A DNA stretch of 44,254 bases from the NCBI GenBank assembly GCA_040397565.1, contig JBBAVU010000004.1, positions 1 to 44,254 of the forward strand, read 5' to 3'. The position numbers and the translations under genes were made by a program. Shown here piece after piece: positions 1 to 43,978 of this stretch; the stretch's first letter is position 1, and the number at the start of each line of letters is the position of its first letter. Below the pieces are notes generated by a model. It was not told the DNA's origin and ran no database searches. It was given only the letters and a program-made list of their open reading frames with translations. The stretch comes from Pirellulales bacterium. GTDB taxonomy: Bacteria; Planctomycetota; Planctomycetia; Pirellulales; UBA1268.

Positions 1-1145
1 ACCACGACTTCGAGGTGAAGCCCAACGGCAACGTGCTCATGATCACGTGGGAGCGGAAGACCTATGAGCAGGCCGTGCAGGCGGGGCGACGCCCGGATGA
101 CGTGCCCGTCGCACCGGGCACGAACGGCATACGCGAACTCTGGCCCGACAGCATCATCGAGGTGAAGCCGAATTCGCCAGCCCCAGGCCACACCTACGCC
201 GAGGGGGGCGAGATCGTGTGGCGGTGGAACCTGTGGGACCACCTTGTCCAGAACGTCAACCCGCAGAAGGACAACTTCGGCAACGTCGCCCGCAGTCCCC
301 ACAGGATCGACGTCAACTACTACATGAAGGGGACCGGCATGGGCGGCGTCCCGGCCGACTGGACCCACTTCAACTCGATCGACTACAGCCCGGAGCGGCA
401 GCAGATCATCGTGTCGAGCCGCGAGTTCTGCGAGTTCTGGATCATCGACCAGAGCACGACGACCGAGGAAGCCAGGGGCAGCGTGGGAGGGCTGAGCGGC
501 AAAGGGGGCGACATTCTCTACCGCTGGGGCAATCCCGCCGCCTACGGCCGCGGAAACTGGCGGAATCAGCAACTGCACTATCAGCACGACCCGCAGTGGA
601 TCGAGCCGGGGCTGCCGGGAGCCGGCAACATCCTGGTGTTCGACAACGGCTGGAGTTCAACTCCACGGCGATCCAGTTTTTCCAGGGTTTTGGAGGTCGC
701 GCTGCCGTACGATGGAAACGGTGGATACACCTCCCCGACGGCCCGCGGTGCGATCGTCTGGCGGTACACGGCCAATCCGCCGAAACAGTTCTTCGCCCGT
801 ATCATCTCCGGTGCGCAGCGGCTGCCCAACGGCAACACGCTGATCAACGAGGGTACCGAGGGCCGCTTCTTCGAGGTCACGAATCAGAAACGCATCGTGT
901 GGGAGTACGTGAACCCGGTCGTCGGACCGGGGCCCTCCGCCATCCTGCGGCAGGGCGAGCGGCCGGCTGTCAACGAGCAGATCAGAGGGCTGAAGATCCC
1001 GGGCGTGTACATGAACCTCGTCTTCCGGGCGTATCGCTACGGCCGGGCATTCTCAGGCTTCGTCGGCCGGGATCTCACTCCAAGCGGACCGATTGAACTG
1101 CCGACCGCCACTGCGAGTGCCTTCGCCGGCCTCGGCAGGAGATGA
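1..1145 (+). CDS. Arylsulfotransferase (ASST)-family beta-propeller protein, 5'-truncated by window edge
   Basis: The reading frame is open to the window start: frame 3 reads ..HDFEVKPNGNVLMI.. ahead of the listed start at 15. Strings HFNSIDY, FWIIDQS, GGDILYRWGNP and NILVFDNG match my recollection of the ASST/arylsulfotransferase_2 family. Stop TGA at 1143-1145. Confidence 0.55.
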   Translation, partial: HDFEVKPNGNVLMITWERKTYEQAVQAGRRPDDVPVAPGTNGIRELWPDSIIEVKPNSPAPGHTYAEGGEIVWRWNLWDHLVQNVNPQKDNFGNVARSPHRIDVNYYMKGTGMGGVPADWTHFNSIDYSPERQQIIVSSREFCEFWIIDQSTTTEEARGSVGGLSGKGGDILYRWGNPAAYGRGNWRNQQLHYQHDPQWIEPGLPGAGNILVFDNGWSSTPRRSSFSRVLEVALPYDGNGGYTSPTARGAIVWRYTANPPKQFFARIISGAQRLPNGNTLINEGTEGRFFEVTNQKRIVWEYVNPVVGPGPSAILRQGERPAVNEQIRGLKIPGVYMNLVFRAYRYGRAFSGFVGRDLTPSGPIELPTATASAFAGLGRR

Positions 1146-2633
1146 TCCGACGAGCTTCTCGAGGGCATCGCGTGCCACCGCGGCCGCCGGTTCCACGACG
1201 AGCCGGCCCTCGGCGGCCACCGCGGCGACGGTCGCCCGGCCGGTGAGCAACTCGGCAAGCGTGTCCGCGGCGACCCAGGCGGTCGGAGTGGCCCGCGCGG
1301 GCAGGCCCACGTGCAGGGATGCCGGGCGACCGGCCTCGAGGCCGATCGTCCACTGGCCACCACCCGCCCCGATCGCCGCCAGGCCGACGCCGGCAGACGG
1401 CGGAGCCGACCACCGTGCCTCGCCGAGGCGACGCTCGAGGACCGCGCGGCCCGAGCCGGCGCAGGCCGTCCGGCCCGGCGGAGGCCAGCGAAAATCGTTC
1501 GCGATCGCGAACCGACAAAGTCGCCCAAGCGCCGGCTCGTCGAGCGGCGGTGCGGGCAGGTCGGGCACGGCGTGCCGCGTGTTCGTCGCGTCGAACACCG
1601 GGTCGTCGCTCCAGTAGGCCCGGTAGACGTCCATCTGGTCGCGAAACAGCCGGCCGAGCATCTCCGGCCCGAGCCGGAGGAAGGCCTCGGCACGCTGCGC
1701 TGCGGCCCCGTCGGCCGGTCGGCACCGGCGCACCGCAGCCATCTCGCCGACCAGGCCCTCGAACACCCGGCAGAGCGTGGCGACGTCGGTCGGCGTGTCG
1801 CTCGTGAGGTGGTACGTGCGGCCGTGAAGCGACTCGTCGCACATGATTCTCGTCATCACGGCCGACACCCAGTCGACCGGCACAAGGTTCTTCCGCTCGC
1901 TCCCGTCCAGGCCGAGCACGTCGAGGAACGATCCCGGCTCCAACGCGGCCGCGAGGAACGACTCCGCGAAGGGCGCCACGATTCGCAGCGGCTTGTAGAA
2001 GCCGTGGAAGGTGTTCGTGAAGCCGTGCACGAGGTCGCCGACGATGATGCTCGGGCGGAACACGGTGCGGCTCTCGATCCACGCCGCGTTCGTCACCTCC
2101 TGCTCCGCGACGATCTTGCTCCGCTCGTAGTCGTTGCCCGGCTCCTGGGCGACGTCGAGCTCCCGTTCGAGGATCGTCCCGCGGCGGCGGCCGCAGACGT
2201 AGGCGGTGGAGACGTGGTGGAGCCGGCGGATCCCGGCGGTTCGGCAGAGGCCGAGCAGGTTTCGCGTGCCGCCGACGTTGCTGGTGTAGGGTTCCCCGTC
2301 GGCCGCCCGCCGCTGGAACGAGAGGCTTGCGGCCGCGTGAACGACTTCGTTCACGTGGCGGCAGACCCACGCCAGCTGATCGTCCGTGAGACCCAGGCCG
2401 TCGGCGACCAGGTCGCCCTCGAGTACGACCGGGCACGGCACCGACGCGCCGGCCACCTGCCACCAGTCGCCGAGCAATTCGTCGACGCGGTCGGCCGCCG
2501 ACGTCGATGCCGATCGACGAACCACGACCGCCAGACGTCGGCCCGCCGCCGCCAGGTCGCGCACGAGCGCGCGTCCAAGCAGGCCGGTCGCGCCGGTGAG
2601 CAGCGTATACGAGTCGGTGGATGATCTCGCCAT
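1053..2633 (-). CDS. Thioester-reductase / fatty-acyl reductase type SDR (R-domain-like) fused to a C-terminal SCP2-like lipid-binding domain
   Basis: Rossmann motif LLTGATGLLG, then HAAA, NVGGT, STAYV and catalytic YERSK (Y-x3-K), as in terminal reductase / NAD_binding_4 enzymes. The last ~110 aa (GQWTIGLEAG...LTGRATVAAVAAEGRLVVEP) look SCP2-like. ATG at 2631-2633 lies 18 nt downstream of the preceding stop; the ORF-track start at 2648 is a TTG. This is the last gene of the PKS operon. Confidence 0.75.
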   Translation of the reverse strand: MARSSTDSYTLLTGATGLLGRALVRDLAAAGRRLAVVVRRSASTSAADRVDELLGDWWQVAGASVPCPVVLEGDLVADGLGLTDDQLAWVCRHVNEVVHAAASLSFQRRAADGEPYTSNVGGTRNLLGLCRTAGIRRLHHVSTAYVCGRRRGTILERELDVAQEPGNDYERSKIVAEQEVTNAAWIESRTVFRPSIIVGDLVHGFTNTFHGFYKPLRIVAPFAESFLAAALEPGSFLDVLGLDGSERKNLVPVDWVSAVMTRIMCDESLHGRTYHLTSDTPTDVATLCRVFEGLVGEMAAVRRCRPADGAAAQRAEAFLRLGPEMLGRLFRDQMDVYRAYWSDDPVFDATNTRHAVPDLPAPPLDEPALGRLCRFAIANDFRWPPPGRTACAGSGRAVLERRLGEARWSAPPSAGVGLAAIGAGGGQWTIGLEAGRPASLHVGLPARATPTAWVAADTLAELLTGRATVAAVAAEGRLVVEPAAAVARDALEKLVGSSPAEAGEGTRSGGRQFNRSAWSEIPADEA

Positions 2634-2651
2634 GGCGTGCGGGGCCAAAGG

Positions 2652-3416
2652 TCAGAAGTGAATCGACGCCCCGCCGTCGACGACGAGCGTCTGCCCCTGC
2701 ACGAGGTCCGCCAGGGGGCTCGCCAGGAAGAGGACGGCGTCGGCGACGTCGGTCGCCTCGAGCATGCGGTCGCCGGTCATCGTCTTCGATCGCCGGCCGG
2801 CGAACATCTCCGCTGCCCCCGGCAGGCGCCGCGTCGAATCGGTTTCGACGAGGCCGGCCTCGACCACGTTCACGTTCACGCCCCGATCGCCGAGCTCGAG
2901 CGCCCAATGACGCGCAAGCGCCGTGAGGGCCGCCTTCGTGCCGCCGATGAGCCCGTACATCGGGAGAGCCATGTGCGTGCCGTGGCTGGAGAGGACGACC
3001 ACCTTCCCACGGCCCGGCCCGGTCCCCAGCAGCGGCGCCGCCTCCTTGAGCAGGTGTACGAGCGACAGCACGTTGGTGTGCATCGCCGCGTCGAAGTGGA
3101 GCTGCGTCGTCGCGGAGAGCGGACGGAAGCCGCCGGTGGCGGCGTTGTGCACGAGGATGTCGAGCCGGCCGAACTCCCGACGCACGAAGCCGATCATTTC
3201 GGCCACGTCCTCCTCCTCGCCGACATCGGCCCGCACGCACACAGCCCGGCGACCGAGGGCGGTGATCCGCTCCGCGACCGCCTCGGCCTCCGGCAGGCTC
3301 GTCACGAAGTTGACGACGACGTCTGCACCCGCCTCGGCGAGCCGCACCGCGCACGCCCGGCCGATGCCGCGGCTCGAGCCGGTGACGACCGCGACCTTTC
3401 CCGTGAGATCGATCAT
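2652..3416 (-). CDS. FabL-type enoyl-ACP reductase (SDR with Y-x6-K), probable trans-acting ER for the PKS
   Basis: 254 aa starting MIDLTGKVAVVTGSSRGIGRACAVRLAEAG. It is collinear with my memory of B. subtilis FabL ([35 protein letters not shown]..). The catalytic spacing Y154-GLIGGT-K161 (2934-2957) is Y-x6-K, typical of enoyl reductases, not the Y-x3-K of FabG. ATG 3414-3416 overlaps the upstream stop as ATGA. The upstream part of the 397-aa track ORF is Arg/Gly-rich junk. Confidence 0.75.
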   Translation of the reverse strand: MIDLTGKVAVVTGSSRGIGRACAVRLAEAGADVVVNFVTSLPEAEAVAERITALGRRAVCVRADVGEEEDVAEMIGFVRREFGRLDILVHNAATGGFRPLSATTQLHFDAAMHTNVLSLVHLLKEAAPLLGTGPGRGKVVVLSSHGTHMALPMYGLIGGTKAALTALARHWALELGDRGVNVNVVEAGLVETDSTRRLPGAAEMFAGRRSKTMTGDRMLEATDVADAVLFLASPLADLVQGQTLVVDGGASIHF

Positions 3417-4099
3417 GACGGTTCGGATGCTCCTGGTGACGTGCAGGCAATGCGGTCGGTGACGGCCACGGCGACGACGTGGTCCCCCTCCACGATGAAA
3501 CGGCCGGTGCCGTGAACGGCGCGGAAGAAACCGCTCACCCGCCACCGGAAGGCCTGTTCCGAGATCCGTTCGACGGCGACCCGCCGCGGCCGAAACCCCT
3601 CGTCGACCGCGGCCGCCTTGTACGCGGCCTCCTTCGCGGCCCATTCGAGCGGCACGTTCCGCGGGTCGGTCACGGCCGAGAGCCCATCCGACTCCAGAAA
3701 GCGGGCGAGCGGCTCGGGAGACACGGCTGCCGGCGCCACGATGTCGATCCCCACCTGCCCGCCGCGACAGGCTGCGATGGCGACGAGTTCCGTCGGCGCA
3801 CTGCTCGCCGGCCGCCGATGGGTGTGGGAGATGGAGATGCCGCACGCGGCCGGTGCACCTCCGTGCAGCACGACGGGTCGGCCCGAGGGGGGCAGCGCCG
3901 CCACCCGCAGTGATGACGGCGACACCCCGAGCACGTTCGCGGCGAGTCGCTCCGCGAGCCGGCTACCGGCCACCGACGGCGAAAGCCCCGCCGTGCGGGC
4001 GGTCCAGATTTCCACCCGGCGACCGTGCACGTCCACTCGCTGCTTCGTGACCGCAGCAGCCGCAGCGTCGGCGACGAATCGTGGAAGTGGGGCTATCAC
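3413..4099 (-). CDS. 4'-phosphopantetheinyl transferase, Sfp/EntD type
   Basis: QVGIDIV metal-binding motif and the EWAAKEAAYKA (W..KEA..K) signature. GTG at 4097-4099 overlaps the PKS stop codon (4096-4098) as GTGA. Its own stop overlaps the next ATG as ATGA at 3413-3416. Confidence 0.8.
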   Translation of the reverse strand: MIAPLPRFVADAAAAAVTKQRVDVHGRRVEIWTARTAGLSPSVAGSRLAERLAANVLGVSPSSLRVAALPPSGRPVVLHGGAPAACGISISHTHRRPASSAPTELVAIAACRGGQVGIDIVAPAAVSPEPLARFLESDGLSAVTDPRNVPLEWAAKEAAYKAAAVDEGFRPRRVAVERISEQAFRWRVSGFFRAVHGTGRFIVEGDHVVAVAVTDRIACTSPGASEPS

Positions 4100-7000
4100 G
4101 GCGTCTCCTCTGCTGAAACGATCGCGAGATGAAGGCCCTCGACGGCCAGGATCGCCTGCCCGTCCGCGCCCACGACGACGAAGTCGTACAGGCTCTCCGA
4201 CGCCGACTGCGCCTGGAGCAGGAGCCGCATCCGGCACATCTCTCCGGCCACCGGCCGCGCGGCAATTCGCACTCGCTCGATCCGCACCGGAAGCTCCACC
4301 CGCCGACCGCACAGCAGGTAGGAATAGACGGCGCATGCCACGAGACACCCGTCGAGCACTTCCACGGGCACCGTCCATCCGCGCGTGCCGCGTGGGAGAG
4401 CCACTCCCTCTCCGTGCGGCGCCACCAGCCGGCCCCAGCCGCCGCTGCGGTCGAGGGAGAGGTCCTTGAGGCCGCGGAACGACGCCCCGTGCACGAGCGG
4501 CGCGTCGTCCGGGTAGATCATCGGGTTGAAGGGAAACGCCGGCTCACCGACCTCGGCCACGATCCGCTCGCAGGCACCGCCCGGGACCTCGGCCCGGAAG
4601 TGGACCCATTCGACCGTGCGATCGAGACCGGTCAGCGGCCGGGCGTAGCCCTGAACCCGGATGCCACCGTCACCGCGGCTCACCTCCGCCCGCACGATCC
4701 TCGGCTCCTTGTCGGGAAACTCGAGGGGCCGCTCGACGACGAAGTCCCGAATCTCCTCGACTCGCTCGCCCCCGCCGCCCGCCCGCGCGGCCTGGGCCAC
4801 GATCTCGAGCCCCATGACCGCCGGCAGCAACGGCCGGCCGTGCAGGAGGTGCTCCAGGAGAAAGCGATCGCTGACGGGATCGAGGCGGAAGAGCACATCG
4901 ACGGCATCACCACGGTGATCGACCCGGTCCACGAGGCTGCCCGCGTCCGCGACGGTCGCGGCTGTCGTCGCTTTCGGCGGCAGGGCGTCCGGGCACATTG
5001 CCGGCTCGGTGACGAGCACTTCGGCATCCGGCAGCCCTGCCTCGATGTCGTCCACGAATCGACGCACGCCCTCGGCGAGCGGCATGAACTGCAGTCCCAG
5101 CTTCTCGAGGGCCAGTTTGCTCTCGGGACGAGACGCCATGCCGACCTCTCCCCACGCGTGCCAGTGGAAGGTGGCCGCCATGAGGCCGGGCCGCCGTGCC
5201 CGCCAGGCGGCGATGCTCTTGGCGAGCAGGTCGTTGGCCAACGAGTAGTCCGCCTGTCCGAGCCCCCCGAGCCGGCCGCTGGTCGATCCGAACCCGACGA
5301 GGCACTCGAGCGACCGTGGATCCACCACCGCCATCAGATGCTCGAGACCGAGACACTTGGGGCCGAGCGTGGCCTCGTAGCCGGCACGGCTCTTCCGTTC
5401 GAACCGGCAGGCTGCCTCCTGCCCGGCGCCGTGGATGATGCCGCGGATCGGCCCGACCTCAGCGACGACCCGCTCCACGAGTCGCCGGACCTCTCCCGCA
5501 TCGACGAGGTCGCAGGCAAGGTACCTGGCATTCACTCCGGCCTGCACGCACCGTGCCAGCGTCGCCTCGATCTCGATCGACTTCTCGATGCTGCGCCACG
5601 CGTCCCGCGGGTCGTCGCCACGCTCCCGCGCCCGCCGCATCACGTCGGCCATGAGGAGTCGGCGGCCGGCCTCGTCGAGATCGATCCACGCCGGGTCGAT
5701 CGCGACCGGCCGCGTCGACCCGACGAGCACGAGCGACAGGCCGTGTCGCCTGCCGACGGCGACCGCGCACGCCGCCGTCACGCCGCGGGCCCCACCCGTC
5801 ACGAGCCAGACACTGCCGCGGTCGAGCGCCGCGAGGGGGCGTTCTCCGCATCGCAGGGGAGCCTCCCGCGGCACGACCGTCACCCGCCGCACGCCTCCCG
5901 AGGCATCGGCGTCGGCAAGCAGGCCCGTCTCCACGGGTCCCGCTCCATCGAGCATCTCGGCGATGATCGCCGCGGCGGCGGTATTCGAGGGGAGGCCCTT
6001 GCCCGCGTCGACGACCCGCACGTGCAGATCGGGAAACTCCCGGGCGAGGGCCTTGCCGAGCCCCGTCAACCCGCCGCCGTCCGCAGCCGGCACGTGCCCC
6101 GAGAGGCCGAAGTCGCCCCCGAGATCGACCACCGCCGTGAGCGTCGCCCCCGCGAGGCCGTCCGCCGCGAGGCGAACGCCGATCCACCGCTGGCAGGCGA
6201 AATAGGCCGCTGCCAACACCCGCTCCCGCCTCATGGTCCATGGCTCGTGATCGGCGGCCGTCGGACGCACCGGCATCAGGACGAGATGACGAACAGGACC
6301 CGATCGCTCCGCATCGTCAATGGCGGCGACGGCTGCGTGAGCCGTCTCGCTCGAAGCGGTCACGGGCCGCGCTCCCGCCGTGGCCAGTGCGGCAGCCAGT
6401 GACGCTGCGAGTTCGTCGTCGCCGAGCACGAGCACCCGCTCGCCGGCGAGCGACCGCGTTCCCCGTGCAGCCGCGCGATCGACGACCTCGAGCCGATACC
6501 GACGGGTGACCGCTGCCACCGGTTCCTCCGGCGCACAGTGCCGTATCGCCACATCCGCGCCGATCGGCCCATCCCCGCTGATCAAAAGGGGCACGACATC
6601 GCCGAGCCAGTCGGCCGTGAGCGGACCGCCGGAACGGGCCACGGGGCCTTCCTCGCCGATGCCGACGGTGAACCAGACGCACGTGGTCGAGAGGGAAGCC
6701 ATTCTTCGTGCTGCCTCAGGGCTCCTCGCGAGCAGGTCACCAAGCGCCATCTCCGGGGCACGCATCCCGTCGTCCAGAAGCAGGCTCGCAAGCGGCGACG
6801 GTGGCTGTGAGTCCTCGAACGTCGAGCCGAGCGGAACGAGACGGCCGGCCGGATCCACGCAGTGGATTCGGCCGCCGGCAGCGAGGTCGGCGACCACGAG
6901 GCCCTGTGCCGCTTCTCCAGCGGCCTGCAGCTCATCGCCCGCCATCGCGACGGTGCGACAGCGGGTCGCTATCCGCTCGACGAGTCGTGTCATGGCCGAC

Positions 7001-10000
7001 CCGACGACGCCCCCCTGCCGCCCGCGGGACGCCGCGAGCACGGCGATCCCAGCGTCGTTCCATCCCGCCACGGCGCCCTCCATCGCCGGCAGGCCCACGA
7101 CGGCCCCCGAGAGGCCGCCGTTGAACCTACGGGCTACGGGTGTGGCATGGCGACCAAAGCAGACGACCAGGCCACGCGTTCCGGCGGAAGCAGGGCCGGT
7201 GATCGGCGCCACCACCAGGCGTTCCCACGCCGCGTCGGCCGTTGCCGAGATGCGGGTGACCGGATCGAGCACCGCCGTCGCGGCGGCACCGGGAGACGGC
7301 TTCGTGTCCCGATCGGGACCGCGGCCATCACGATCGCGGCCCACCCGTGGCAGCAGGTAATCGAGCAGGTGCCGTAGCGTCGGGAACGCATCGAGCGACA
7401 CGTCGTCATCCGCCGCGAGTCCGTACTTCAGGCCGATCTCCCCCACCATCTGTGCCTTGCGGATGCTGTCGATCCCCAGGTCTGCCTCGAGGTCGGCGTC
7501 GAGTTCCACGATCTCGCGTGGATAGCCCGTCTGCTCCACGACGAAATCGACAAGAAACGTCGCGATCTCCGCGGTCGCTGCGGTCGCCGCCGGATGGTGC
7601 TCATTCCCGCCCGCTCGCCCGTTTCCGTGGCCGTTCCCGAGCGCGGCAGCGGCCCGATTTCGATCGCGTCGTCGCGCGGTGGCGTCGAACACATGCACCC
7701 GCGAAGCCGGTCGCGTGCGGTCGACGCCGGAGGCCGCGGGGGGCGGTGACGGAGGCCGCAGGGCCCCTGCGGCTTCGAGCTGCGCGACGAGCCGCCCGAG
7801 GGTTTCCCGGGAGCATCGTCCGCGCTGGTCGAACTGCACGAACCGAACCCCTTCCTTCCCCTCGAGAACCCGCCGCGTCAGTCCGGTCAGCACACCAGAG
7901 GGACCGACTTCCACGAACGTGCGCACGCCCCGCTCGTAGAGCCGCAGCACCGTGTCGATCCAGCGGACGGTCCGCGTCATCTGGGCGACGAGGCTGTCGC
8001 GAATCGAAGCGGCGCCGCCGAGCACTTCGGCCGAGGTGCTGCCGAAGGTGGGAAGCCGGGGAGGCTCGATCGGCAGCGTGTCGATGACCCCCGCCAGACG
8101 GTCAGCCGCCACGGCCAAGAGCGGCGTGTGAAAGGGGCTCGGCACCGCAAGCCGTTTCGACTTTACCCGCTCTGCCTCGAGCAGTGACTCGAAGGCATCC
8201 ACATCGCGCGACAATCCGCCGACGACGAACTGCTCCGGGGCATTCTCCGCGCAGAGCCAGACCCGGTCGCGGAACTGCCCGAGGGCCTGGTCCACGGTGC
8301 CGCGATCCGCGATGACCGAAAGCATCGCGCCATCCCGTGGGCCATGACGCTCCACCGCGTCGGCGCGGGCCCGCGTCGCCCGCGCAGCCGAGACGAGGCT
8401 CCAGCCGCCAGTGGCGACGAGGGCAGCGTACTCGCCGAAGGAGTGGCTGGCGACGACGTCCGGCTCGAAGCCGAGCCGCTCGAGCGTCCGCCACGCCACG
8501 AGGTCGGCGAGCAACACCGACCACTGCGTGTCCCAGACGCGGAGCCCCAGGCCAGTGGGACCGAAGCCGGAGTGGTCGTGCCAGGCGATGTCCGACAGCG
8601 TGGGCTGGCCGGCCGACCGCGCGGCGGCATCGACGTCGGCGATCGCCGCCGCGCCCTCGGGCAGGCCGGCGAGGTCGCGAAACATGTCGGCGTACTGCGA
8701 CCCTTGGCCGGGAAAAACCGCGGCGACGAGACGCCTGCCGGACGCCGGGACGGCCGCGGGGCCGACGGCGGTCCCGACGGTGGCCCCGGGGGAGGCCGGC
8801 CCGCACGATCGCGGCACGACCGCACCGTTGTCCACCACGACATGACCGGCCAGGGCACCGTACGCGACCGTCACGCCGCCAGCGCGATACCGTGTCTCGC
8901 CGACCGCCGCGATCGGCAGTCGCTCCGTCGCCGCCTCGAGGCCGTGCACCTCGCGACGCCGCGTTGAGAGCGCCGCCGAGCCGGGAAGAAGGCCCTCGTC
9001 GACCGCCCGCGTCAGCATCAGCATTCCTGCCGCCCCTGCCGCGGCACCGACATGGCCGATGAGCCCGTTGATCGCACCGGCGACCGGCGGTGACGCGGTT
9101 TTGCCGTACGCATCACCGATGGCCGCGAGCTGTGCGTCGCACCTGTCGTGCCCGCCGGCCGCGGCGACCGCCACGGCTCCCACCACCTCGGAACCGATGC
9201 CCGCATCCCGATGGGCGTTTTCGATGGCCAGCTTCACGGCGGCCGCCGCCGCGCGGTCGCCACCGAGGCCAACCCCGCGGATGACGCCGCGGACCCGGTC
9301 GCCCGCGGCCCGCGCGTCGGCGAGCCGCTTGAGCACGAACACGACCGCACCCTCCGCCGGCACGTCCCCGCCGGACGACAGGCCGTCGAGCACGCATATC
9401 GGCCGGGGGGCCAGATGCCCGGCCAGCGATCGCCCCTCGTACGACATGAAGTCGAGGCATCGCTCGCCGGCGGCGCACAGGACCGTGTCGCAGTCCCCCC
9501 GCCGCAGCATGTCGACCGCCGCGGACACCGCCGTCACGCTCGAGCAGTCGCCGGCGTCGATCGCGACCGCCCCCCCCATGAGATCGAAGGTCTTCGTGAG
9601 CCGACTGGCGAGCGTGCTGCTCGTGAAGCTTCCCGTCTCGTCGACGACCGCCGGCATCCGCTCGATGAGCGCCGTTTCAAACGCAGCGACGATCTGCTCC
9701 CGGTCCGCCAGACAGACGCCACGCCGATGGAGCGCAGCCGCGAGCAGCCGCACCGTTTCGGGAAGCCGCAGCCCCATCTGAAGCTGGTTCGAGAAGTCGC
9801 CGCCGAACCGCGTGCCCACCACGACCGCCGCGCGGCGGCGGTCGAAAGCCCGAAGTCCACCGGCGTCAGCGACCGCCTCGTCGGCCGCCTCCAGAAGCAT
9901 GAACTGCAGCGGATTGGCGGCGGCGATCTGCTTGGGCGGAACTCGGTGACGCCGCCAGTCGTACGAGAAGCCCCGCACGAAGCCGCCGACGTCCGCCACG

Positions 10001-11619
10001 ACGTGCCACGGCCGCGGGCCCGAGCGATCGAGCACGCCCGGGGAATCCCAACGGTCCGTCGGTGCGGGGCCGATCGCACTCTCCCCGCGGTCGAGCCGTG
10101 CGTAGAACGCCTCTCGCGTCAGCGATCCGGGCAGCACGCATCCGGCACCAACGATGGCGATCGCGTCGTGATCGGCCTCCCGACCGGGCCGCGTCATGGC
10201 CGGTCGGGGCTTCGTCGACGGCATGTGTTCCGCGAGTGCCAGGTGCACGTTCAGACCGCCGATGCCGAACGCGTTGACCGCCGCGAGTCGGGGCGTGCCG
10301 TCTGCGTGGGCGGGCCAGGGCATCGCGGTTCGCGGAACGACGAACGGACCTCGCTCCCAGTCGAAGGAGCGGCTGAGTTCTCCTCCGGTGAATCCTGGGG
10401 GAATCATCCCGTGCTCGAATGCCAGCACAACCTTGACGAGGCTCGCGAGGCCGGCGGTCTCGAGGGTGTGGCCGATGTTGGACTTCACGGAGCCGATCGG
10501 CAGCTTCCGGCCCGGCGGCACGTGGTCCGACATCACCCTCGCGAGTGCCGCAAGCTCTGTGGCGTCGCCCACCTGCGTGCCGGTGGCGTGCGTCTCGATG
10601 TACTCGAGCCTGGCGAGATCCGCGGGGTCGGGGTAGGCCCGCTGCACGGCGGCGATCTGACCCTCCTGCCGAGGCGCCCAGAGGCTCTTTCCCTTGCCGT
10701 CGCTCGCGACGCCGAGACCACGGATGACGCCGCGAATGCGGTCGCCGTCGGCCACCGCCCGCGCGAGCGTCTTGAGGACGATCGCCACGTACCCCTCCGC
10801 GGTAACGAGCCCGTCGGCGGCCTCACCGAACGGGAACGAGCCGGTCGCACTGACCGACTGGGCGGCCGAAAAGAGCACCAGGCTGTCGGACTTGCAGTAG
10901 GAGGCGCCGCCCACGATGGCCTGGTCGATGGTGCCCTGCAGCAGGGATCGCCCGGCGATGGCCAGCGCCTGGAGCGACGAAGCGCACGCCGCGTCGACGA
11001 CCAGGTAGGGCCCGCGGAGCGCCAGGGCCTCCCGCACGATGGCCGCCGCGCCGAGGGCGTCGAGGTGGAGCCGTTCGCCCGGCATGCGGGGGGGATATCT
11101 TCGCCGGACGCCATCGATGACCTCCGCCGCCACCGCGCGGACATCGTCACCGAGCACGTCCCTTGCCGCCTCGACGTCGGCAAGGATCCTCGTCGCCTCC
11201 TCGATCCCGCTTGCGTACACGATGTCGCCGATCTTCGTGCTGCCCCCGGTGTGCCCCACGTAGACGCCGGTGGACCGGCCGGAGGGCATGGCGAAAGGAT
11301 CGAGGCCGGCATCGAGACACGCCTGCGACGCCACCTCGAGGAATAGGTGATGCGCCACGTCGTAGCGGCGGAGCAGGTCGTCCGTGATCGGACAGCGACG
11401 CGGATCGACCGCACGATCCGGGACGAGACCGCCGATGTCCGAGTACGTCCGGCCGATCTTTCCCTTTTCGGGATCGAAATACAGATCACGCTGCAGCCTG
11501 GAGTCGGGCAACGGTCCCCACGCCGTTCGGCCCTCCACCACGAGCCGCCAGAACTCCTCGAGCCCGTCGGCTCCGGGCAACCGGCAGGACATGCCCACGA
11601 TCGCAAGCGACTCGGTCAA
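4096..11619 (-). CDS. Type I polyketide/PUFA-synthase-like megasynthase: KS - KS2 (CLF position) - AT - ACP - unassigned insert - KR - DH
   Basis: 2507 aa; domain coordinates are my own counts. KS1: aa 3-462 (10234-11613), with DAAC212ASS, ETH344ATGT, NIGH384. KS2: aa 486-925 (8845-10164), with DAGDC692SS, GGH824, LIGH856. AT: aa 963-1285 (7765-8733), with GQGSQ, SHS1060FGE, PFH. ACP: aa 1345-1425 (7345-7587), with LGIDS1385I. Unassigned region: aa 1445-1720 (6460-7287). KR: aa 1725-2200 (5020-6447), with WLVTGGARGV and Y2125. PS-type DH: aa 2235-2507 (4099-4917), with H2257LLHGRPLLP. No TE domain. The start is TTG at 11617-11619, with AGGA 9 nt upstream; the first ATG (M10) would cut the conserved IAIVGMSCRLPG strand. 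Confidence 0.9.
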   Translation of the reverse strand: MTESLAIVGMSCRLPGADGLEEFWRLVVEGRTAWGPLPDSRLQRDLYFDPEKGKIGRTYSDIGGLVPDRAVDPRRCPITDDLLRRYDVAHHLFLEVASQACLDAGLDPFAMPSGRSTGVYVGHTGGSTKIGDIVYASGIEEATRILADVEAARDVLGDDVRAVAAEVIDGVRRRYPPRMPGERLHLDALGAAAIVREALALRGPYLVVDAACASSLQALAIAGRSLLQGTIDQAIVGGASYCKSDSLVLFSAAQSVSATGSFPFGEAADGLVTAEGYVAIVLKTLARAVADGDRIRGVIRGLGVASDGKGKSLWAPRQEGQIAAVQRAYPDPADLARLEYIETHATGTQVGDATELAALARVMSDHVPPGRKLPIGSVKSNIGHTLETAGLASLVKVVLAFEHGMIPPGFTGGELSRSFDWERGPFVVPRTAMPWPAHADGTPRLAAVNAFGIGGLNVHLALAEHMPSTKPRPAMTRPGREADHDAIAIVGAGCVLPGSLTREAFYARLDRGESAIGPAPTDRWDSPGVLDRSGPRPWHVVADVGGFVRGFSYDWRRHRVPPKQIAAANPLQFMLLEAADEAVADAGGLRAFDRRRAAVVVGTRFGGDFSNQLQMGLRLPETVRLLAAALHRRGVCLADREQIVAAFETALIERMPAVVDETGSFTSSTLASRLTKTFDLMGGAVAIDAGDCSSVTAVSAAVDMLRRGDCDTVLCAAGERCLDFMSYEGRSLAGHLAPRPICVLDGLSSGGDVPAEGAVVFVLKRLADARAAGDRVRGVIRGVGLGGDRAAAAAVKLAIENAHRDAGIGSEVVGAVAVAAAGGHDRCDAQLAAIGDAYGKTASPPVAGAINGLIGHVGAAAGAAGMLMLTRAVDEGLLPGSAALSTRRREVHGLEAATERLPIAAVGETRYRAGGVTVAYGALAGHVVVDNGAVVPRSCGPASPGATVGTAVGPAAVPASGRRLVAAVFPGQGSQYADMFRDLAGLPEGAAAIADVDAAARSAGQPTLSDIAWHDHSGFGPTGLGLRVWDTQWSVLLADLVAWRTLERLGFEPDVVASHSFGEYAALVATGGWSLVSAARATRARADAVERHGPRDGAMLSVIADRGTVDQALGQFRDRVWLCAENAPEQFVVGGLSRDVDAFESLLEAERVKSKRLAVPSPFHTPLLAVAADRLAGVIDTLPIEPPRLPTFGSTSAEVLGGAASIRDSLVAQMTRTVRWIDTVLRLYERGVRTFVEVGPSGVLTGLTRRVLEGKEGVRFVQFDQRGRCSRETLGRLVAQLEAAGALRPPSPPPAASGVDRTRPASRVHVFDATARRRDRNRAAAALGNGHGNGRAGGNEHHPAATAATAEIATFLVDFVVEQTGYPREIVELDADLEADLGIDSIRKAQMVGEIGLKYGLAADDDVSLDAFPTLRHLLDYLLPRVGRDRDGRGPDRDTKPSPGAAATAVLDPVTRISATADAAWERLVVAPITGPASAGTRGLVVCFGRHATPVARRFNGGLSGAVVGLPAMEGAVAGWNDAGIAVLAASRGRQGGVVGSAMTRLVERIATRCRTVAMAGDELQAAGEAAQGLVVADLAAGGRIHCVDPAGRLVPLGSTFEDSQPPSPLASLLLDDGMRAPEMALGDLLARSPEAARRMASLSTTCVWFTVGIGEEGPVARSGGPLTADWLGDVVPLLISGDGPIGADVAIRHCAPEEPVAAVTRRYRLEVVDRAAARGTRSLAGERVLVLGDDELAASLAAALATAGARPVTASSETAHAAVAAIDDAERSGPVRHLVLMPVRPTAADHEPWTMRRERVLAAAYFACQRWIGVRLAADGLAGATLTAVVDLGGDFGLSGHVPAADGGGLTGLGKALAREFPDLHVRVVDAGKGLPSNTAAAAIIAEMLDGAGPVETGLLADADASGGVRRVTVVPREAPLRCGERPLAALDRGSVWLVTGGARGVTAACAVAVGRRHGLSLVLVGSTRPVAIDPAWIDLDEAGRRLLMADVMRRARERGDDPRDAWRSIEKSIEIEATLARCVQAGVNARYLACDLVDAGEVRRLVERVVAEVGPIRGIIHGAGQEAACRFERKSRAGYEATLGPKCLGLEHLMAVVDPRSLECLVGFGSTSGRLGGLGQADYSLANDLLAKSIAAWRARRPGLMAATFHWHAWGEVGMASRPESKLALEKLGLQFMPLAEGVRRFVDDIEAGLPDAEVLVTEPAMCPDALPPKATTAATVADAGSLVDRVDHRGDAVDVLFRLDPVSDRFLLEHLLHGRPLLPAVMGLEIVAQAARAGGGGERVEEIRDFVVERPLEFPDKEPRIVRAEVSRGDGGIRVQGYARPLTGLDRTVEWVHFRAEVPGGACERIVAEVGEPAFPFNPMIYPDDAPLVHGASFRGLKDLSLDRSGGWGRLVAPHGEGVALPRGTRGWTVPVEVLDGCLVACAVYSYLLCGRRVELPVRIERVRIAARPVAGEMCRMRLLLQAQSASESLYDFVVVGADGQAILAVEGLHLAIVSAEETP

Positions 11620-11829
11620 GATCTTGCGTCCTGGTTGGTGGTGGAAGGCGTGCGGTCCGCCGTCAGCATCCGTGGCGAACGCAGTGAGGGAGTGAACCCG
11701 TCGACGACCGAGCGGAGTATGACTTCACCCGCATGGTAGTCAAGGTTTTCGCCCCGTCGCGCGACCCGCTTGTGCCGTCGTTTGCCACCGGTTCGCCCCC
11801 GCTAGGGCGGGAGGGTATGGTGGTCTCGC
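11620..11829. promoter_or_regulatory. Divergent intergenic region between the PKS operon and the condensation-like acyltransferase gene (promoters and RBSs expected)
   Basis: This is the only sizeable non-coding gap (210 nt) flanking the PKS operon, and the genes leave it in opposite directions. AGGA lies upstream of the PKS TTG and GGGAGGG at 11809-11815 lies upstream of the ATG at 11830. I could not recognise -35/-10 hexamers. Confidence 0.35.
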
Positions 11830-13149
11830 ATGCCCTCATCCGCGGCCACCTGCGATCGTGTCCAGTCCGTCACGAGCAGGTCGCTCGATCCGCTCGAGCA
11901 CCTCATGCTCACGGATGCCCGGCCGGGGCATCCACTCTGCTTCTTCATCGAGTGCGACGTCGAGGGTGTTCTCGACGAGGATCGCCTTCGCACGGCGCTC
12001 GCCGCAGCGGCTCAGCGGCATCCACTCTTCCGCAGCAGGGCGAGGTTGGGCGGCTGGCGACCACACTGGCTCGAGCCGGATGTCGCCCCTGCCCTGCTCT
12101 GGCATCCCACCGCGAGTGATCGGCCGTGGCGATCCCCCGATCTTGCGATGGAAAGCGGGGCGAGGTTGGTGGTGCTCTCGGGCGATGCCCCGGACCGCCA
12201 CCGGGTCATCCTCCAGGTGCAGCATGCGGTCTGCGACGGGCTCGCCGCCATCGAGTTTCTGGGGGATGTCTGGGCGGGCTATGCCGGCCTCACTCCGCCG
12301 CCGTTTTCAACGCGACGACGCTCCGACGACGCGGTCGCCTCCACCCCGATGACGACTTCGGCCGACATGCGCAGGGACGCGGTCGCGTTCTCCCGCTTTC
12401 GACCGCGGCCGCTCGCCCCGCTTCACGGCACGCACGAGGGCTCAGGCGTCTTCCGGCCGCTTCACCCGCCGTACCTCACGCGTGTGTTCGATCGCGACAC
12501 GACCGTTCGCCTGAGGCGTGGCGCGACCGCGCGTGGCATCACGCTCAACGACGTCGTCGTGACGGCGACGATGCGGGCCGCGATCGCATGGAACGAACGT
12601 ACTGTCGGCGAGGCGGGCAACGTGCGGATCAACGTGCCGGTGAGCCTCAGGCCGCCGGGAACACGGCAGCCGGCCCGCAACGTGCTGGGCTACGCATTTC
12701 TCGACCGCATGCCCGAGGAGTGTCGCGACCGTGACCAACTCGCATCGTCGATCGCGGCTGCCACCCGCTGGATCCTCGCCACGAACGCGGCGGCGGAGTT
12801 TCTCGTGGGCCTGCGTGCGGTCAGCCGGGTGCCGGGCCTGCTGCGACTGCTGACGCGGCTGCCCGTCTGCCACGCAACCGGAATCGTCAGCTGTGCCGGC
12901 GACCCGAGCCGGCGGATGCGGTCGGGCGTCGGAAAGATCGACGGACTCGACGCGCCGGGCGGCGTCGTGATCCGCGGCATGTCGGGCGTGCCGCCGCTGC
13001 GACCTCGCACCCGTGTGGCGATCGGGGCAACCACCTACGGTGGATCTCTGGCCCTCTGCTGCACGTGCTCGGCCGGAGCGGATCACCACGACGCATCGGC
13101 CCGCTTCCTCGACCTCATCCAGCCGGAAATCGAAGCCTTCGCCGACTGA
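11830..13149 (+). CDS. Stand-alone condensation-domain / WS-DGAT-like acyltransferase
   Basis: 439 aa. The N-terminus SLDPLEHLML..RPGHPLCFF resembles the C-domain / wax-synthase N-terminal motif. The catalytic motif Q-H-AVC-D-G sits at aa 131-137 (12220-12240), the usual HHxxxDG position, with only the second (catalytic) His kept. Confidence 0.65.
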   Translation: MPSSAATCDRVQSVTSRSLDPLEHLMLTDARPGHPLCFFIECDVEGVLDEDRLRTALAAAAQRHPLFRSRARLGGWRPHWLEPDVAPALLWHPTASDRPWRSPDLAMESGARLVVLSGDAPDRHRVILQVQHAVCDGLAAIEFLGDVWAGYAGLTPPPFSTRRRSDDAVASTPMTTSADMRRDAVAFSRFRPRPLAPLHGTHEGSGVFRPLHPPYLTRVFDRDTTVRLRRGATARGITLNDVVVTATMRAAIAWNERTVGEAGNVRINVPVSLRPPGTRQPARNVLGYAFLDRMPEECRDRDQLASSIAAATRWILATNAAAEFLVGLRAVSRVPGLLRLLTRLPVCHATGIVSCAGDPSRRMRSGVGKIDGLDAPGGVVIRGMSGVPPLRPRTRVAIGATTYGGSLALCCTCSAGADHHDASARFLDLIQPEIEAFAD

Positions 13150-13157
13150 CGACGACT

Positions 13158-14438
13158 CTAGGGCAGCTTCACGAAGCCGTCGAACCACGGCTTCACCGCG
13201 AGCGTCGCCGAGACGTACGACGCACGGTGGTCGGCCCGTTCGCCCGCCGAGAGGAACTCCACCTGCGGGCTGCCGAGCATCTTTCCGAAGTCGAACACCA
13301 TCCGCGAGACAGCCGGCGGAATCGCCTCATCGGCATCGCCGCCGTAGGCCCGCAGGGGCGTCTTGATCTTCCAGCGATAAGCCCCCGCTTCCTCGAGCAG
13401 ATCCCAGAACCGCCCACGGCCGCTCTCCGCCCCCTCGATGAACGAGGGCTTCAAGAGCCCGGTCACACCGCCAGGCACCGAGGCATCGTACTCCGGCCAC
13501 GGAAGCTCCCCGTCGAAAAACCTCCGCGAGGCGGCGAGGTGTTCCGGCTTGATTGCCGAGGCCGCGAGGCCGGGGAGCCGGGCGTATTCCTCCTGCGACC
13601 AGAGCATGTTGCTGATGCAGCCCTTGATCCAGGCGGCATCCTGCGGACGCGGGTTCGCAATCGGCCGACGGAAGGCCGCCGCGAGATCGACCGGCGCACT
13701 CACGGTCGCGGCAGCGGTGACCGGAACGCCGAGCGTCTCCAGCCGACGGAGGAACTGCATCGTCGACCAGCCCCCCTGCGACCAGCCCCAGACGAACAAC
13801 TTCGGCGTCGTCTGCCCGAGCGAGTCGAGCACCGCCTTCGACGAGCGGTAGTGGTCGAGCATCGACTGCGTCGTGCCCCGCGCCACGATGAAGCAGTTGG
13901 GCAGCCGCGACGCCCCCAGGCCGAAATAGTCGGCGCCGATCACGACGTAGCCCTGGCCTGCGAACGCGGCGAGGGCCAGTTGCGTCTCGTACGAGTTGTC
14001 GGGGCGGGAAGGCACCTGGTCGCGGCCGAAGACCGTGCCGTGCTGGTAGCTGAGGAGCGGATGCGTCTTCGAGCCGTCCTCCGGGACCGCCAGCAGGCCG
14101 CTGCCGAGGGTCGGCTGGTTGTCCCATTCGGGAACCACGGAATCGAACTGGACCTCGTAGAGCGTCACGCCGTTCCGCGGTGCGGGGAACTTCGACTTGA
14201 AGTCGGCCGACTTCATCGTCGAGCCCTGCGACGGGTCGAAGCCCCCCATGAACGTGTCGAGGCCCCGGTCGAGGATCTCGCCCAGCCGGGCCTTGTCGTA
14301 GCTGCCGATCTTCCGGTACCGCACGCCCGACGCCACCGGCGTGAACTCCTGGTCCGCCGAAAAGGCGGTGCCAGCCGCGGTGAGAACGCATGCGACGAGC
14401 GAGCAGATGGCGAAACACCACGAGCGAGCGATGGTCAT
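13158..14438 (-). CDS. Secreted alpha/beta-hydrolase, lipase-like
   Basis: The start at MTIARSWCFAICSLVACVLTAAGTAFSA gives a signal-peptide-like N-terminus, with AGGGGG upstream. Nucleophile elbow GWSQGG (GxSxG). Size and layout resemble the secretory lipase family. The 24 aa upstream in the track ORF are unlikely to be coding. Confidence 0.6.
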   Translation of the reverse strand: MTIARSWCFAICSLVACVLTAAGTAFSADQEFTPVASGVRYRKIGSYDKARLGEILDRGLDTFMGGFDPSQGSTMKSADFKSKFPAPRNGVTLYEVQFDSVVPEWDNQPTLGSGLLAVPEDGSKTHPLLSYQHGTVFGRDQVPSRPDNSYETQLALAAFAGQGYVVIGADYFGLGASRLPNCFIVARGTTQSMLDHYRSSKAVLDSLGQTTPKLFVWGWSQGGWSTMQFLRRLETLGVPVTAAATVSAPVDLAAAFRRPIANPRPQDAAWIKGCISNMLWSQEEYARLPGLAASAIKPEHLAASRRFFDGELPWPEYDASVPGGVTGLLKPSFIEGAESGRGRFWDLLEEAGAYRWKIKTPLRAYGGDADEAIPPAVSRMVFDFGKMLGSPQVEFLSAGERADHRASYVSATLAVKPWFDGFVKLP

Positions 14439-14547
14439 GGAACCCCCTGGATTGAACTGCAGATCCTCATATGGGGGCGGAGTGTATGCGGGTGTGCGCG
14501 GCGCACGCAAGCATGCATCGCCTCGCCCCGGACGAGCCCGGAGCCGT

Positions 14548-15309
14548 TCACTTCCCGAGCGCCGCCTCGGCGTGGCGGAGGATCTCGGTGGGTGTCCGAA
14601 CGACGCCGCTGAACGGCCGCTCCATCTCCAGGATGAGAAAGATGGCGCTGCTCACCGACAGCGAGCAGAGGAAGAGTGCCAGGAACACCGTCACATTCCG
14701 CTGGGCGAACAGTCCGTAGCTGAAGAACGTGACCACCAACCACAGGCCGAGGGTGAGCAGGAAAAGCAGCGGCATCTGGGCGTGCTGCTCGGCCGCCAGG
14801 GCCCACCGTGCCCGGAGCGCCGCCTCGCCGAGCTTCACGAGCTGTTCCTTGATGCCCTTCTGCCTGAGATCACGTGGCTCGAGCGCATGGATACGGTCCG
14901 CCGTGTCCTCGATCCAGGCTGCGGACTCGAGCGGATCGTAGTTCTTCGACGCACCCTCTCCCAGGCTCGTGAGCCAGGCGAGCCTGCGCCGCATCATGGT
15001 CACGACTTCGGCCCGGATGTCCGTCGCCTCCTCGCCATACCGCCGCAGCAGGCGGTCGATCGTGATGAGGTCGATCGCGGCGTCGTGCACGTTCCTGCAG
15101 GTGAGCTCGTAGGTGCTCTTGGCCGACGCCGTGGCTAGGCCCAGGATGAGCGCGGTCATCGCAGTGATGGTGCCGATGGCGAGCCGCACGGTGTCCTTCG
15201 TCTCGCTCCCGACGTGATCCGCCGGCAGCTGCCGCTGGACGAAGAGCCCGATGGCGGCCGCGGCGCATGTGGAAAGCATGACCAGGCCGGCGATAACGAT
15301 GGGGTTCAT
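14548..15309 (-). CDS. DUF4239-family membrane protein
   Basis: 253 aa. It has an N-terminal TM helix, a central soluble helical region and two C-terminal TM helices (PLLFLLTLGLWLVVTFF, VFLALFLCSLSVSSAIFLILEM). This matches my recollection of DUF4239. GGAG lies 8-11 nt upstream of the ATG. Confidence 0.55.
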   Translation of the reverse strand: MNPIVIAGLVMLSTCAAAAIGLFVQRQLPADHVGSETKDTVRLAIGTITAMTALILGLATASAKSTYELTCRNVHDAAIDLITIDRLLRRYGEEATDIRAEVVTMMRRRLAWLTSLGEGASKNYDPLESAAWIEDTADRIHALEPRDLRQKGIKEQLVKLGEAALRARWALAAEQHAQMPLLFLLTLGLWLVVTFFSYGLFAQRNVTVFLALFLCSLSVSSAIFLILEMERPFSGVVRTPTEILRHAEAALGK

Positions 15310-25210: not shown

Positions 25211-25251
25211 CGCGTCGTATGCCCCGGCGGGCCCGCGGGTGGCACCGCCGG

Positions 25252-25932
25252 TCAGGTCGCCCGCCCGTGCCGTGCCGACTCGCGCATGGCGTCTCGGGCG
25301 CGGCACCAGACGCCGGCATGCGGATGGTCGCGGTACGCTTCGATCCACGGGCCCCCATTCGTGTAGTGGATCATCTTCGTGGTTTCGTCCATTCGGTCGA
25401 GCGAGTTCCAGGCGAGCGGAATCTCGCCGATCTGCTCGTCAGGAATGCCCTGAAAGCGATGGAGGTAGGCGCCGGTCTGCGTGGCGACGGCCTCCCTGCT
25501 CCAAAGGGTCAGGTTTTCGCAGCTCATGATCATCAGGCTCGACCAGTTCTTTCGTGGATAGGCAGACTGCTCGCAGCCATACATCTTCACGGTGTTGACG
25601 GGCCGGTAGTCGTGCTTCACGACGCGAAGCGCAAGGCCGCTCATGTCGAGATCATCGAGCTCCTTGATGTCGGCGAAGCAGAGCATGTCGCTGTCCATGA
25701 AGACCGCCTTTCCCGCAAAGCCGCAGAGGTGCGGCACGAGGAACCGGGAGTAGGTGAACTCCGTCGAGGCCCGCGGGTCCGGCATCCGGTCGAGGCCGAC
25801 CTCGTGCAGCTTCAGGTAGCGGATGTCGAGTGGAATCGAGGCGTGCGCGAGCAGGCTGTGCCGCAGCACGTCCGCCGGCTCGGGGAAACGCGAATCCCAT
25901 CCGATGAAGATCGTCAGCATCCGGAGAAGCAT
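25252..25932 (-). CDS. GT8-like nucleotide-sugar glycosyltransferase (GT-A fold, DxD)
   Basis: The start MLLRMLTIFIGWDSR gives an N-terminal beta-strand at once. FTYSRFLVPHL and the DxD-type motif FMDSDM follow. An alternative ATG lies at 25920. The upstream 58 aa of the track ORF are Arg/Gly/Pro-rich. Confidence 0.5.
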   Translation of the reverse strand: MLLRMLTIFIGWDSRFPEPADVLRHSLLAHASIPLDIRYLKLHEVGLDRMPDPRASTEFTYSRFLVPHLCGFAGKAVFMDSDMLCFADIKELDDLDMSGLALRVVKHDYRPVNTVKMYGCEQSAYPRKNWSSLMIMSCENLTLWSREAVATQTGAYLHRFQGIPDEQIGEIPLAWNSLDRMDETTKMIHYTNGGPWIEAYRDHPHAGVWCRARDAMRESARHGRAT

Positions 25933-43956: not shown

Positions 43957-43978
43957 CGTCGGGGCCGGCCCCGCAGGA

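Follow-up and report, generated by a model that had tools for sequence, protein, structure and literature searches.

A predicted lipid synthase cluster lies at the start of a 44,254-nt stretch of DNA from a Pirellulales bacterium (GenBank assembly GCA_040397565.1, contig JBBAVU010000004.1, positions 1 to 44,254), hereafter the window. It comprises a one-polypeptide type I polyketide/fatty acid synthase (PKS/FAS), a 4'-phosphopantetheinyl transferase (PPTase), a FabL-type enoyl reductase (ER), a thioester-reductase-type reductase, a divergent acyltransferase and an arylsulfotransferase (ASST)-like gene. With a probability of roughly 0.55, we read it as a secondary-lipid synthase cluster of the polyunsaturated fatty acid (PUFA)/heterocyst glycolipid (Hgl) kind that makes a long, largely saturated lipid, releases it in reduced form as an aldehyde or alcohol, and then acylates it. 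The window has a G+C content of ~69%, and many spurious open reading frames overlap real genes, so gene models were set by homology (Table 1). Catalytic motifs are intact across the ketosynthase (KS), acyltransferase (AT), acyl carrier protein (ACP), ketoreductase (KR) and dehydratase (DH) domains, as well as in the PPTase, ER, reductase and stand-alone acyltransferase.

The minus-strand genes are tightly packed. The PKS stop overlaps the GTG start of the PPTase in a GTGA (minus strand, 4099-4096), the PPTase stop overlaps the ER start in an ATGA (3416-3413), and 18 nt separate the ER stop (TGA, 2654-2652) from the reductase ATG at 2633. These 4-nt overlaps show translational coupling in the minus-strand genes, and the reductase, being adjacent and translationally coupled, is the obvious release enzyme. 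The PKS starts with a TTG at 11619 and the acyltransferase with an ATG at 11830, leaving 210 nt between them. All these junctions fall where an initial annotation of this DNA, made from the sequence alone, had placed them. The only sigma-70-like site between 900 and 13400 lies within the 210-nt gap (11743-11716, minus strand) and faces the PKS, a weak signal of one site against 0.3 expected.

Relatives were collected through a genome scan with the reductase family, which recovered them in at least 494 species-level genomes, and the 80 best loci were examined in detail. Reductase-centred loci mostly stop within the 8-kb PKS, so five further contigs (L085-L090) were located via acyltransferase homologues. 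L-numbers denote these loci and contigs; the window's own clade is L005-L007.

Pfam finds the KS, second KS, AT, ACP, KR and DH in the synthase order proposed in the initial annotation, KS-KS2-AT-ACP-X-KR-DH, and its scan of the PKS detects neither an ER nor a thioesterase (TE) domain. An alignment of the KS1 and KS2 domains of six family synthases reveals an Asp at the Cys position of KS2 (GDCSS) and loss of the first His, which identifies this domain as a chain-length-factor (CLF)-type partner; the KS fold assigned to it earlier thus holds, with its role refined. The DH motif HLLHGRPLLP, read from the translation, fits HxxxGxxxxP, and the structural part of the KR (psiKR) is alignable even with distant relatives. 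PfaA (TIGR02813) is the top NCBIfam match of the PKS at 618.8 bits, under the 1010.1 cut-off. The Pfam scan finds no FabA-like dehydratase/isomerase domain in the PKS, where PKS_DH_N and PS-DH are the only dehydratase matches, and neither Pfam nor NCBIfam detects an FMN-dependent PfaD-type domain in the window's cluster genes. Relatives possess two to four tandem ACPs, counted as LGxDS motifs (three in L085, two in L087 and four in L089), against one in the window.

The PPTase matches Pfam ACPS weakly (7e-4) and contains GIDIV and WAAKEAAYKA motifs in its translation, while orthologues at the same position match ACPS with E-values down to 1.5e-9. The adjacent ER matches adh_short_C2 (1.1e-58, Pfam), and the top model among 235 short-chain dehydrogenase/reductase (SDR) models is NCBIfam FabL NF005975, with 251.1 bits, under its 328 cut-off. 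Its closest solved relative is Bacillus subtilis FabL (PDB 3oic; 185 bits, the next scoring 131), with YGLIGGTK of the window protein aligned to YTTVGVSK of 3oic in the Tyr-x6-Lys arrangement, and JGI names members of the ER cluster "enoyl-ACP reductase III". Hidden Markov model (HMM), nearest structure and motif thus agree with the earlier proposal that a FabL-type Y-x6-K SDR supplies the ER activity.

The reductase is composed of an SDR region (aa 1-390) and a small C-terminal alpha/beta domain (aa 395-500) bearing GGGQWT, the latter confidently modelled. NAD_binding_4 (PF07993) matches at 5.4e-38 (131 bits against a cut-off of 20.1), and the motifs TGATGLLG and YERSK are present, with the family alignment invariant at T13-G20, Y169, S172 and K173; the score to TIGR01746 is 100.6 bits, under the 213 cut-off. 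An AlphaFold model built with 18 homologues has a predicted local distance difference test score (pLDDT) of 82.5. Its top Foldseek matches comprise the reductase (R) domain of MxaA (myxalamid; E 8e-19, TMt 0.68), the thioreductase domain of a Streptomyces coelicolor PKS (8v1x), R domains of carboxylic acid reductases and the rice fatty acyl reductase DPW. HMM and structure calls therefore keep both SDRs in their predicted classes, FabL-like and NAD_binding_4.

An SCP2-like identity is plausible for the reductase tail. Pfam SCP2_2 matches seven of 18 family reductases (best 6.7e-5), the window tail scores E 0.011-0.058 against SCP2 and SCP2_2 (14-17 bits, cut-off 23.2), and a profile of the C-terminal domain retrieves no SCP2 match from PDB sequences. 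The order of helices and strands in the tail model seems compatible with the SCP2 fold. The initial annotation described this protein as a YERSK thioester-reductase-type SDR fused to SCP2, of which the first part stands and the second is weak and sub-threshold for the window protein. It also named the reductase as the only release activity; an adjacent release candidate is indeed encoded, and it may not be the only one, as the PapA5-like enzyme and the X domain of relatives could offload too.

The divergently encoded acyltransferase belongs to the PapA5/condensation superfamily. Pfam PapA_C matches at 5.5e-4 (19.8 bits against a cut-off of 30) and NCBIfam PapA5 at 9e-11, and the family profile searched against the PDB matches PvdL best (4.4e-19), followed by PapA5 (1.1e-13 and 1.6e-7) and the wax-ester synthase WSD (1.6e-5). 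Within its QHAVCDG motif, H132, D136 and G137 are invariant in 19 homologues, with Q, H or another residue at the first position. Motif, family profile and the 210-nt gap together confirm the divergent QHxxxDG acyltransferase called at the outset. Some relatives of this enzyme (P0183, P0190 and P0196; ~726 aa) are fused to PF04072, a leucine carboxyl/polyketide O-methyltransferase domain, and on L090 the acyltransferase gene is followed by a second, shorter NAD_binding_4 reductase (11657-12931, 424 aa) without the C-terminal domain.

These components suggest a pathway in which the PPTase would prime the single ACP, and the KS-CLF pair, together with the malonyl-type AT, would extend the chain iteratively. 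Each condensation would be followed by the KR and PKS-type DH steps, giving a trans-2-enoyl-ACP that the separately encoded FabL-type SDR would reduce in place of an FMN-type PfaD. The stand-alone reductase would turn the finished acyl-ACP thioester into an aldehyde, possibly an alcohol, and its lipid-binding-like tail may hold the chain. The PapA5/condensation-like enzyme would then acylate the released alcohol, possibly with a second synthase-bound chain as donor, to give a wax-ester-like envelope lipid. Outside the cytoplasm, this product is probably a target of the apparently exported ASST-like protein. The parts of this pathway are present in the window; the chemistry assigned to them draws on what is established for Pfa and Hgl synthases, FabL, R domains and PapA5. 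Since no transaminase is encoded in the window, reduction to the alcohol and O-acylation is the most economical reading there.

Table 1. Features of the synthase cluster in the window, with synthase domains listed below the genes
Feature	Coordinates	Strand	Evidence or remark
Arylsulfotransferase (ASST)-like gene	1-1145	+	5' end cut off by window edge; converges on reductase gene
Reductase (thioester-reductase/fatty-acyl-reductase-type SDR + C-terminal domain)	1053-2633	-	NAD_binding_4
FabL-type enoyl-ACP reductase	2652-3416	-	SDR, Y-x6-K; proposed trans-acting ER
Sfp-type 4'-phosphopantetheinyl transferase (PPTase)	3413-4099	-	Pfam ACPS weak, plus motifs
Type I PKS/FAS, PfaA/Hgl-like, iterative, 2507 aa	4096-11619	-	Pfam; NCBIfam PfaA
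Divergent intergenic region, 210 nt	11620-11829	.	Between PKS and acyltransferase starts
PapA5/WS-DGAT/NRPS-condensation-superfamily acyltransferase	11830-13149	+	QHAVCDG; profile matches
KS	10195-11619 (aa 3-470)	-	Intact Cys-His-His triad: DAACASS, HATGT, NIGH
Second KS-fold domain, CLF type	8800-10182 (aa ~490-930)	-	ketoacyl-synt 4e-35; KS1/KS2 alignment
AT, FabD-like	7852-8727 (aa 968-1256)	-	Acyl_transf_1 6.9e-26; NCBIfam FabD 9e-46
ACP, single, LGIDS	7354-7554 (aa 1356-1422)	-	PP-binding 9.2e-7
X domain	6535-7212 (PKS residues ~1470-1695)	-	Probably Ntn-hydrolase-like, AAT/peptidase C45-like
KR, structural (psiKR) + catalytic sub-domains	5140-6522	-	KR 5.4e-24 at aa 1938-2157
DH, PKS-type double-hotdog	4105-4887 (aa 2245-2505)	-	PKS_DH_N 5.2e-9; PS-DH 1.7e-6

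The block is conserved as a unit across planctomycetal loci, as the initial annotation required. The synthase, PPTase, ER and reductase follow one another in this order at almost all of the 80 best loci, and in 62 the ER lies directly upstream of the reductase on the same strand. Upstream sequence reaches 4 kb or more in 47 loci, and 46 of these contain the PKS. On all five further contigs the acyltransferase is divergent to the PKS, with the PPTase next to it and the ER where covered. Median identities to the window proteins are 63% for the reductase, 53% for the PKS and 41% for the PPTase, and the ER is the best-conserved cluster gene at 85% (in loci with an adjacent ER), reaching 82-96% in the close family. 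All 80 loci are planctomycetal save for some metagenome-assembled genomes titled "Chitinophagaceae", "Chitinophaga" or "Candidatus Kuenenia" (L005, L011, L012, L014, L042 and others), whose gene content and closest relatives are planctomycetal; these titles are probably taxonomy-label or binning errors.

A more distant version is present in the cultured Blastopirellula marina DSM 3645 (L072, 2-15765), where the PKS, PPTase, a Rieske oxygenase, the ER and the reductase lie in this order and are followed in turn by a class-III aminotransferase, an AMP-ligase and a condensation-like enzyme, and where the synthase of this clade has no X domain. The aminotransferase directly follows the reductase in L072, L074, L075 and L084, and the AMP-ligase is present in L072, L074 and L084; a homologue of the window acyltransferase (28% identity, E 6e-28) occurs in L072 and L074. 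It is difficult to see why a reductase gene should be followed by genes for a transaminase, a ligase and a condensation-like enzyme if the reductase did not yield an aldehyde and the condensation-like enzyme did not acylate the reduced product; the gene content of the B. marina clade thus predicts an N-acylated long-chain amine. The aminotransferase and AMP-ligase of this clade also back the earlier proposal that the chain is released reductively and then esterified or amidated, for which we infer the chemistry from gene content.

The cluster most resembles the Hgl and Pfa systems. Hgl functions comprise KS, CLF, AT, ACP, KR, DH, ER, thioester reductase and PPTase (PMC11804610); the window cluster has an equal functional set and, like the hgl island of Anabaena/Nostoc, an iterative type I PKS/FAS that is PfaA-like. 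A long, mostly saturated chain released reductively as a fatty alcohol is the Hgl product, and a similar outcome is predicted for the window cluster. Hgl spreads its functions over several proteins, whereas the window synthase is one polypeptide with a separate FabL-type SDR as ER; the window reductase is stand-alone and carries an extra C-terminal domain, and the synthase contains a putative Ntn/AAT-like domain. A sugar is attached to the Hgl alcohol, whereas the window cluster has a PapA5-like acyltransferase in place of a glycosyltransferase, and no glycosyltransferase or glycolipid-exporter Pfam domain is found in the cluster genes and scanned neighbours.

With PfaABCDE the cluster shares the KS-CLF pair, the AT, a KR and PKS-type DH after the ACP region, a dedicated Sfp-type PPTase and, in relatives, tandem ACPs. 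It differs in being a single polypeptide without a FabA-like DH/isomerase or FMN-dependent PfaD, and in its predicted reductive release, where PfaABCDE releases free acid or phospholipid. Lacking a FabA-type DH, PfaD, a glycosyltransferase and an exporter, and with a sub-threshold PfaA score, the cluster works like Pfa and Hgl yet belongs to neither. The planctomycete types I and J of Shulse and Allen were also considered and rejected as this cluster, as they have PfaD and other architectures.

Partial likenesses extend to other systems. In zeamine and fabclavine biosynthesis a PUFA-like synthase is paired with a stand-alone thioester reductase (PMC5811116, PMC3547906), as in the window, with an aminotransferase as an additional point of likeness in the B. 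marina-clade version; the window differs in having neither an aminotransferase nor nonribosomal peptide synthetase (NRPS)/PKS partner genes. Mycobacterial PapA5, of the phthiocerol dimycocerosate (PDIM) pathway, is likewise a stand-alone HHxxxDG-type condensation-superfamily enzyme encoded beside a lipid PKS, to which the window enzyme, with Gln for the first His, is similar at about superfamily level. In species descriptions such clusters are only tallied under the labels "type I PKS" or "hglE-KS", and no planctomycete type I PKS has a product named in a review of the phylum from 2025 (PMC12673574). Our literature search, that review included, found no product assigned to this cluster, in line with the initial annotation, and the cluster family appears uncharacterised.

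The X region, kept in the close family and missing in the distant clade, is probably an N-terminal nucleophile (Ntn)-hydrolase domain resembling isopenicillin-N acyltransferase (IAT; AAT/peptidase C45), judging from its model and weak profile matches. Pfam AAT (PF03417) matches under threshold in seven of 20 members (best 1.5e-4), the window copy not among them, and PDB 3gvz aligns at the GWNDAGL region with E 0.2. The AlphaFold (AF2) model of X has a mean pLDDT of 65.6, with 10-residue blocks of the core mostly at 76-94. The 50 Foldseek matches listed all have the Ntn fold: 49 are proteasome subunits and one is IAT (2x1c). They are weak, with E-values of 3e-3 or higher and TM-scores of 0.3-0.4 overall, IAT giving a probability of 0.97 and the top query TM-score, 0.41. 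A G-x-C occupies the nucleophile position in 22 of 43 non-redundant relatives (20 GGC, one GNC and one GTC), where it ends an N-terminal sub-domain; the remainder carry F, L, I, S or W. The self-cleavage site and nucleophile of IAT are expected at the matching position. In the window's clade the N-terminal sub-domain has been lost and Trp fills the nucleophile position (AAWERLVV in the window), and the window's X looks catalytically dead.

X resembles IAT and peptidase C45 in the probable Ntn-type fold of its model, the GWNDAGL region and, in about half of relatives, the Gly-Cys, all at sub-threshold scores; it differs in being embedded in a megasynthase and, in the window copy, in having neither the nucleophile nor the N-terminal sub-domain. 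A phmmer search of X against 1.84 billion representatives returned 12 matches; Pfam scans of six show PKS fragments, and the rest are short or weak, so no stand-alone relatives of X are detectable by sequence. A word-indexed protein search with the X region alone returned nothing, its candidate list probably swamped by Ala/Gly-rich words, and Pfam gave no AAT match at E <=0.1 on full-length fragments with a complete X. The literature search found no description of an Ntn/AAT-like domain inside a PKS. A bolder reading, which we consider unlikely, takes X of the Gly-Cys relatives as a new in-line PKS domain, a self-cleaving IAT-like Ntn hydrolase that would split the megasynthase after the ACPs and before KR-DH, then employ its newly exposed N-terminal Cys to release the ACP-bound chain or pass it on. 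This activity would have been lost in the window's clade, with reductive release taking over entirely, and the cluster may make undescribed envelope lipids found throughout the planctomycete phylum.

Several points weigh against a reduced and acylated lipid as the product. The chemistry is deduced from genes, and sequence does not reveal chain length, retained hydroxyls or whether reduction takes two or four electrons. The FabL, thioester-reductase, PfaA and PapA_C models all score under their curated cut-offs. The acyltransferase could equally offload directly from the ACP. The ER is far better conserved than its neighbours (85% against 41-63%), so it might double as, or be, a housekeeping enoyl reductase.

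The strongest competing product is an amide lipid, an N-acylated long-chain amine, which would form if the reductase stopped at the aldehyde, a transaminase were encoded elsewhere, and the condensation-like enzyme made the amide. The B. marina-clade loci, which carry the aminotransferase and, in some of them, the AMP-ligase and the acyltransferase homologue, argue for it, as does the acyltransferase profile, which matches best NRPS condensation-domain proteins, enzymes that form amides. The window and the close-family loci contain no homologue of the aminotransferase or AMP-ligase, and we consider this outcome unlikely for the window.

The ASST-like gene raises a further alternative. Its frame is open from base 3, with matches to Pfam Arylsulfotrans (2.2e-14) and Arylsulfotran_2 (1e-8) and a beta-propeller fold, and a full-length orthologue in L007 (529 aa) has LEERMLL near its N-terminus, which is likely to be a secretion leader of the planctomycete kind. 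A homologue adjoins the reductase in L005-L007, L009, L019, L052, L060, L061 and L065, and directly follows the acyltransferase in L085-L087. The gene is a recurrent accessory cluster member, and the cassette limits drawn initially at 1053-13149, although correct for the genes inside them, are too narrow, since the ASST-like gene left of 1053 also belongs. Its recurrence at two positions and in both orientations would suit a sulfated lipid, in which the released alcohol or hydroxylated chain is sulfated extracellularly by the ASST-like protein, the partner being either the acyltransferase product or a phenolic sulfate. Characterised ASSTs, however, act on phenols and are not known to act on alkanols, and the gene is missing from three of the five acyltransferase-centred contigs (L088, L089 and L090), which makes it accessory, while most other loci do not span the region where it could lie. 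A sulfated product is less likely still than the amide. At 23171-25348 (minus strand), ~10 kb off the cluster, a 725-aa protein carries Sulfotransfer_3 at its N-terminal end, its long C-terminal part being uncharacterised; a functional tie to the ASST-like gene is possible.

Rieske non-haem iron oxygenase genes, one or two per locus, are found in 46 of the 80 loci and in none of the window's clade. They sit either in the PPTase-ER interval or behind the reductase (for example in L001, L002 and L090) and fall into two types, 31-36% identical, whose top NCBIfam match is, weakly, the glycine-betaine monooxygenase GbcA. NCBIfam matches to the sterol demethylase proteins SdmA and SdmB lie far under their cut-offs and were dismissed as generic SDR/Rieske similarity. 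The window holds a reduced version of the family, with a single ACP, Rieske oxygenases missing and X, the most unusual element of the cluster, degenerate.

The exceptional conservation of the ER and the very wide distribution of the cluster would also fit a synthase that, with FabL, made ordinary membrane fatty acids, or a FabL that was a housekeeping ER parked in the operon, with the reductase and acyltransferase as a side branch. We regard a role in primary lipid metabolism as improbable, given that the CLF, dedicated PPTase, reductive release enzyme and PapA5-like transferase are hallmarks of specialised lipid pathways and that the accessory genes (Rieske, ASST, aminotransferase) differ between lineages. 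A synthase for polyunsaturated fatty acids or polyolefin precursors, like Pfa systems feeding OleABCD, is very improbable: the top-ranked PfaA match, the KS-CLF pair and the tandem ACPs of relatives fit it, but the window's cluster genes have neither a FabA-type domain nor PfaD, the PfaA score is far under its cut-off, and Shulse and Allen types I and J differ in architecture.

Other genes of the window lie to the right of the cluster. A 450-aa alpha/beta hydrolase (13158-14510, minus strand) with a hydrophobic N-terminal leader, suggesting secretion, and weak secretory-lipase (LIP) and Hydrolase_4 matches is encoded convergently to the acyltransferase gene, their stops separated by 8 nt (13150-13157). 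It might cleave an ester product, and was rejected as a core part, having no homologue beside the acyltransferase in other lineages. A 1655-aa protein (15387-20354, minus strand) is built of a Ser/Thr kinase, an nSTAND1 NTPase and, at its C-terminus, a formylglycine-generating-enzyme-like (FGE-sulfatase) domain, and an 844-aa protein (41467-44001, minus strand) carries RNase III and a double-stranded RNA-binding domain in its last ~210 residues, its N-terminal 630 residues having no Pfam match. Other neighbours, at 14548-15309 (minus strand), 26896-30960 and 34147-36516, comprise a bestrophin-like membrane protein, PAS-GGDEF and GGDEF-EAL signalling proteins and the hydrogenase maturation factor HypF, and seem to have no connection with the cluster.

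Planctomycetes are abundant in lakes, in soils and on algae. The cluster family is present in at least 494 species-level genomes, and its layout resembles a structural-lipid pathway more than one for a rare antibiotic. Knowing what it makes could bring to light a new class of lipids and perhaps a biomarker for environmental work. If the reduced, acylated lipid proves to be the product, a FabL-type SDR would act as the trans-ER of a PUFA-like synthase, and a stand-alone reductase with its own lipid-binding-like tail would release the chain; relatives may, in addition, hold a new Ntn-hydrolase-type domain inside a megasynthase. The related version in the cultured B. marina DSM 3645 offers a practical entry point for genetics.

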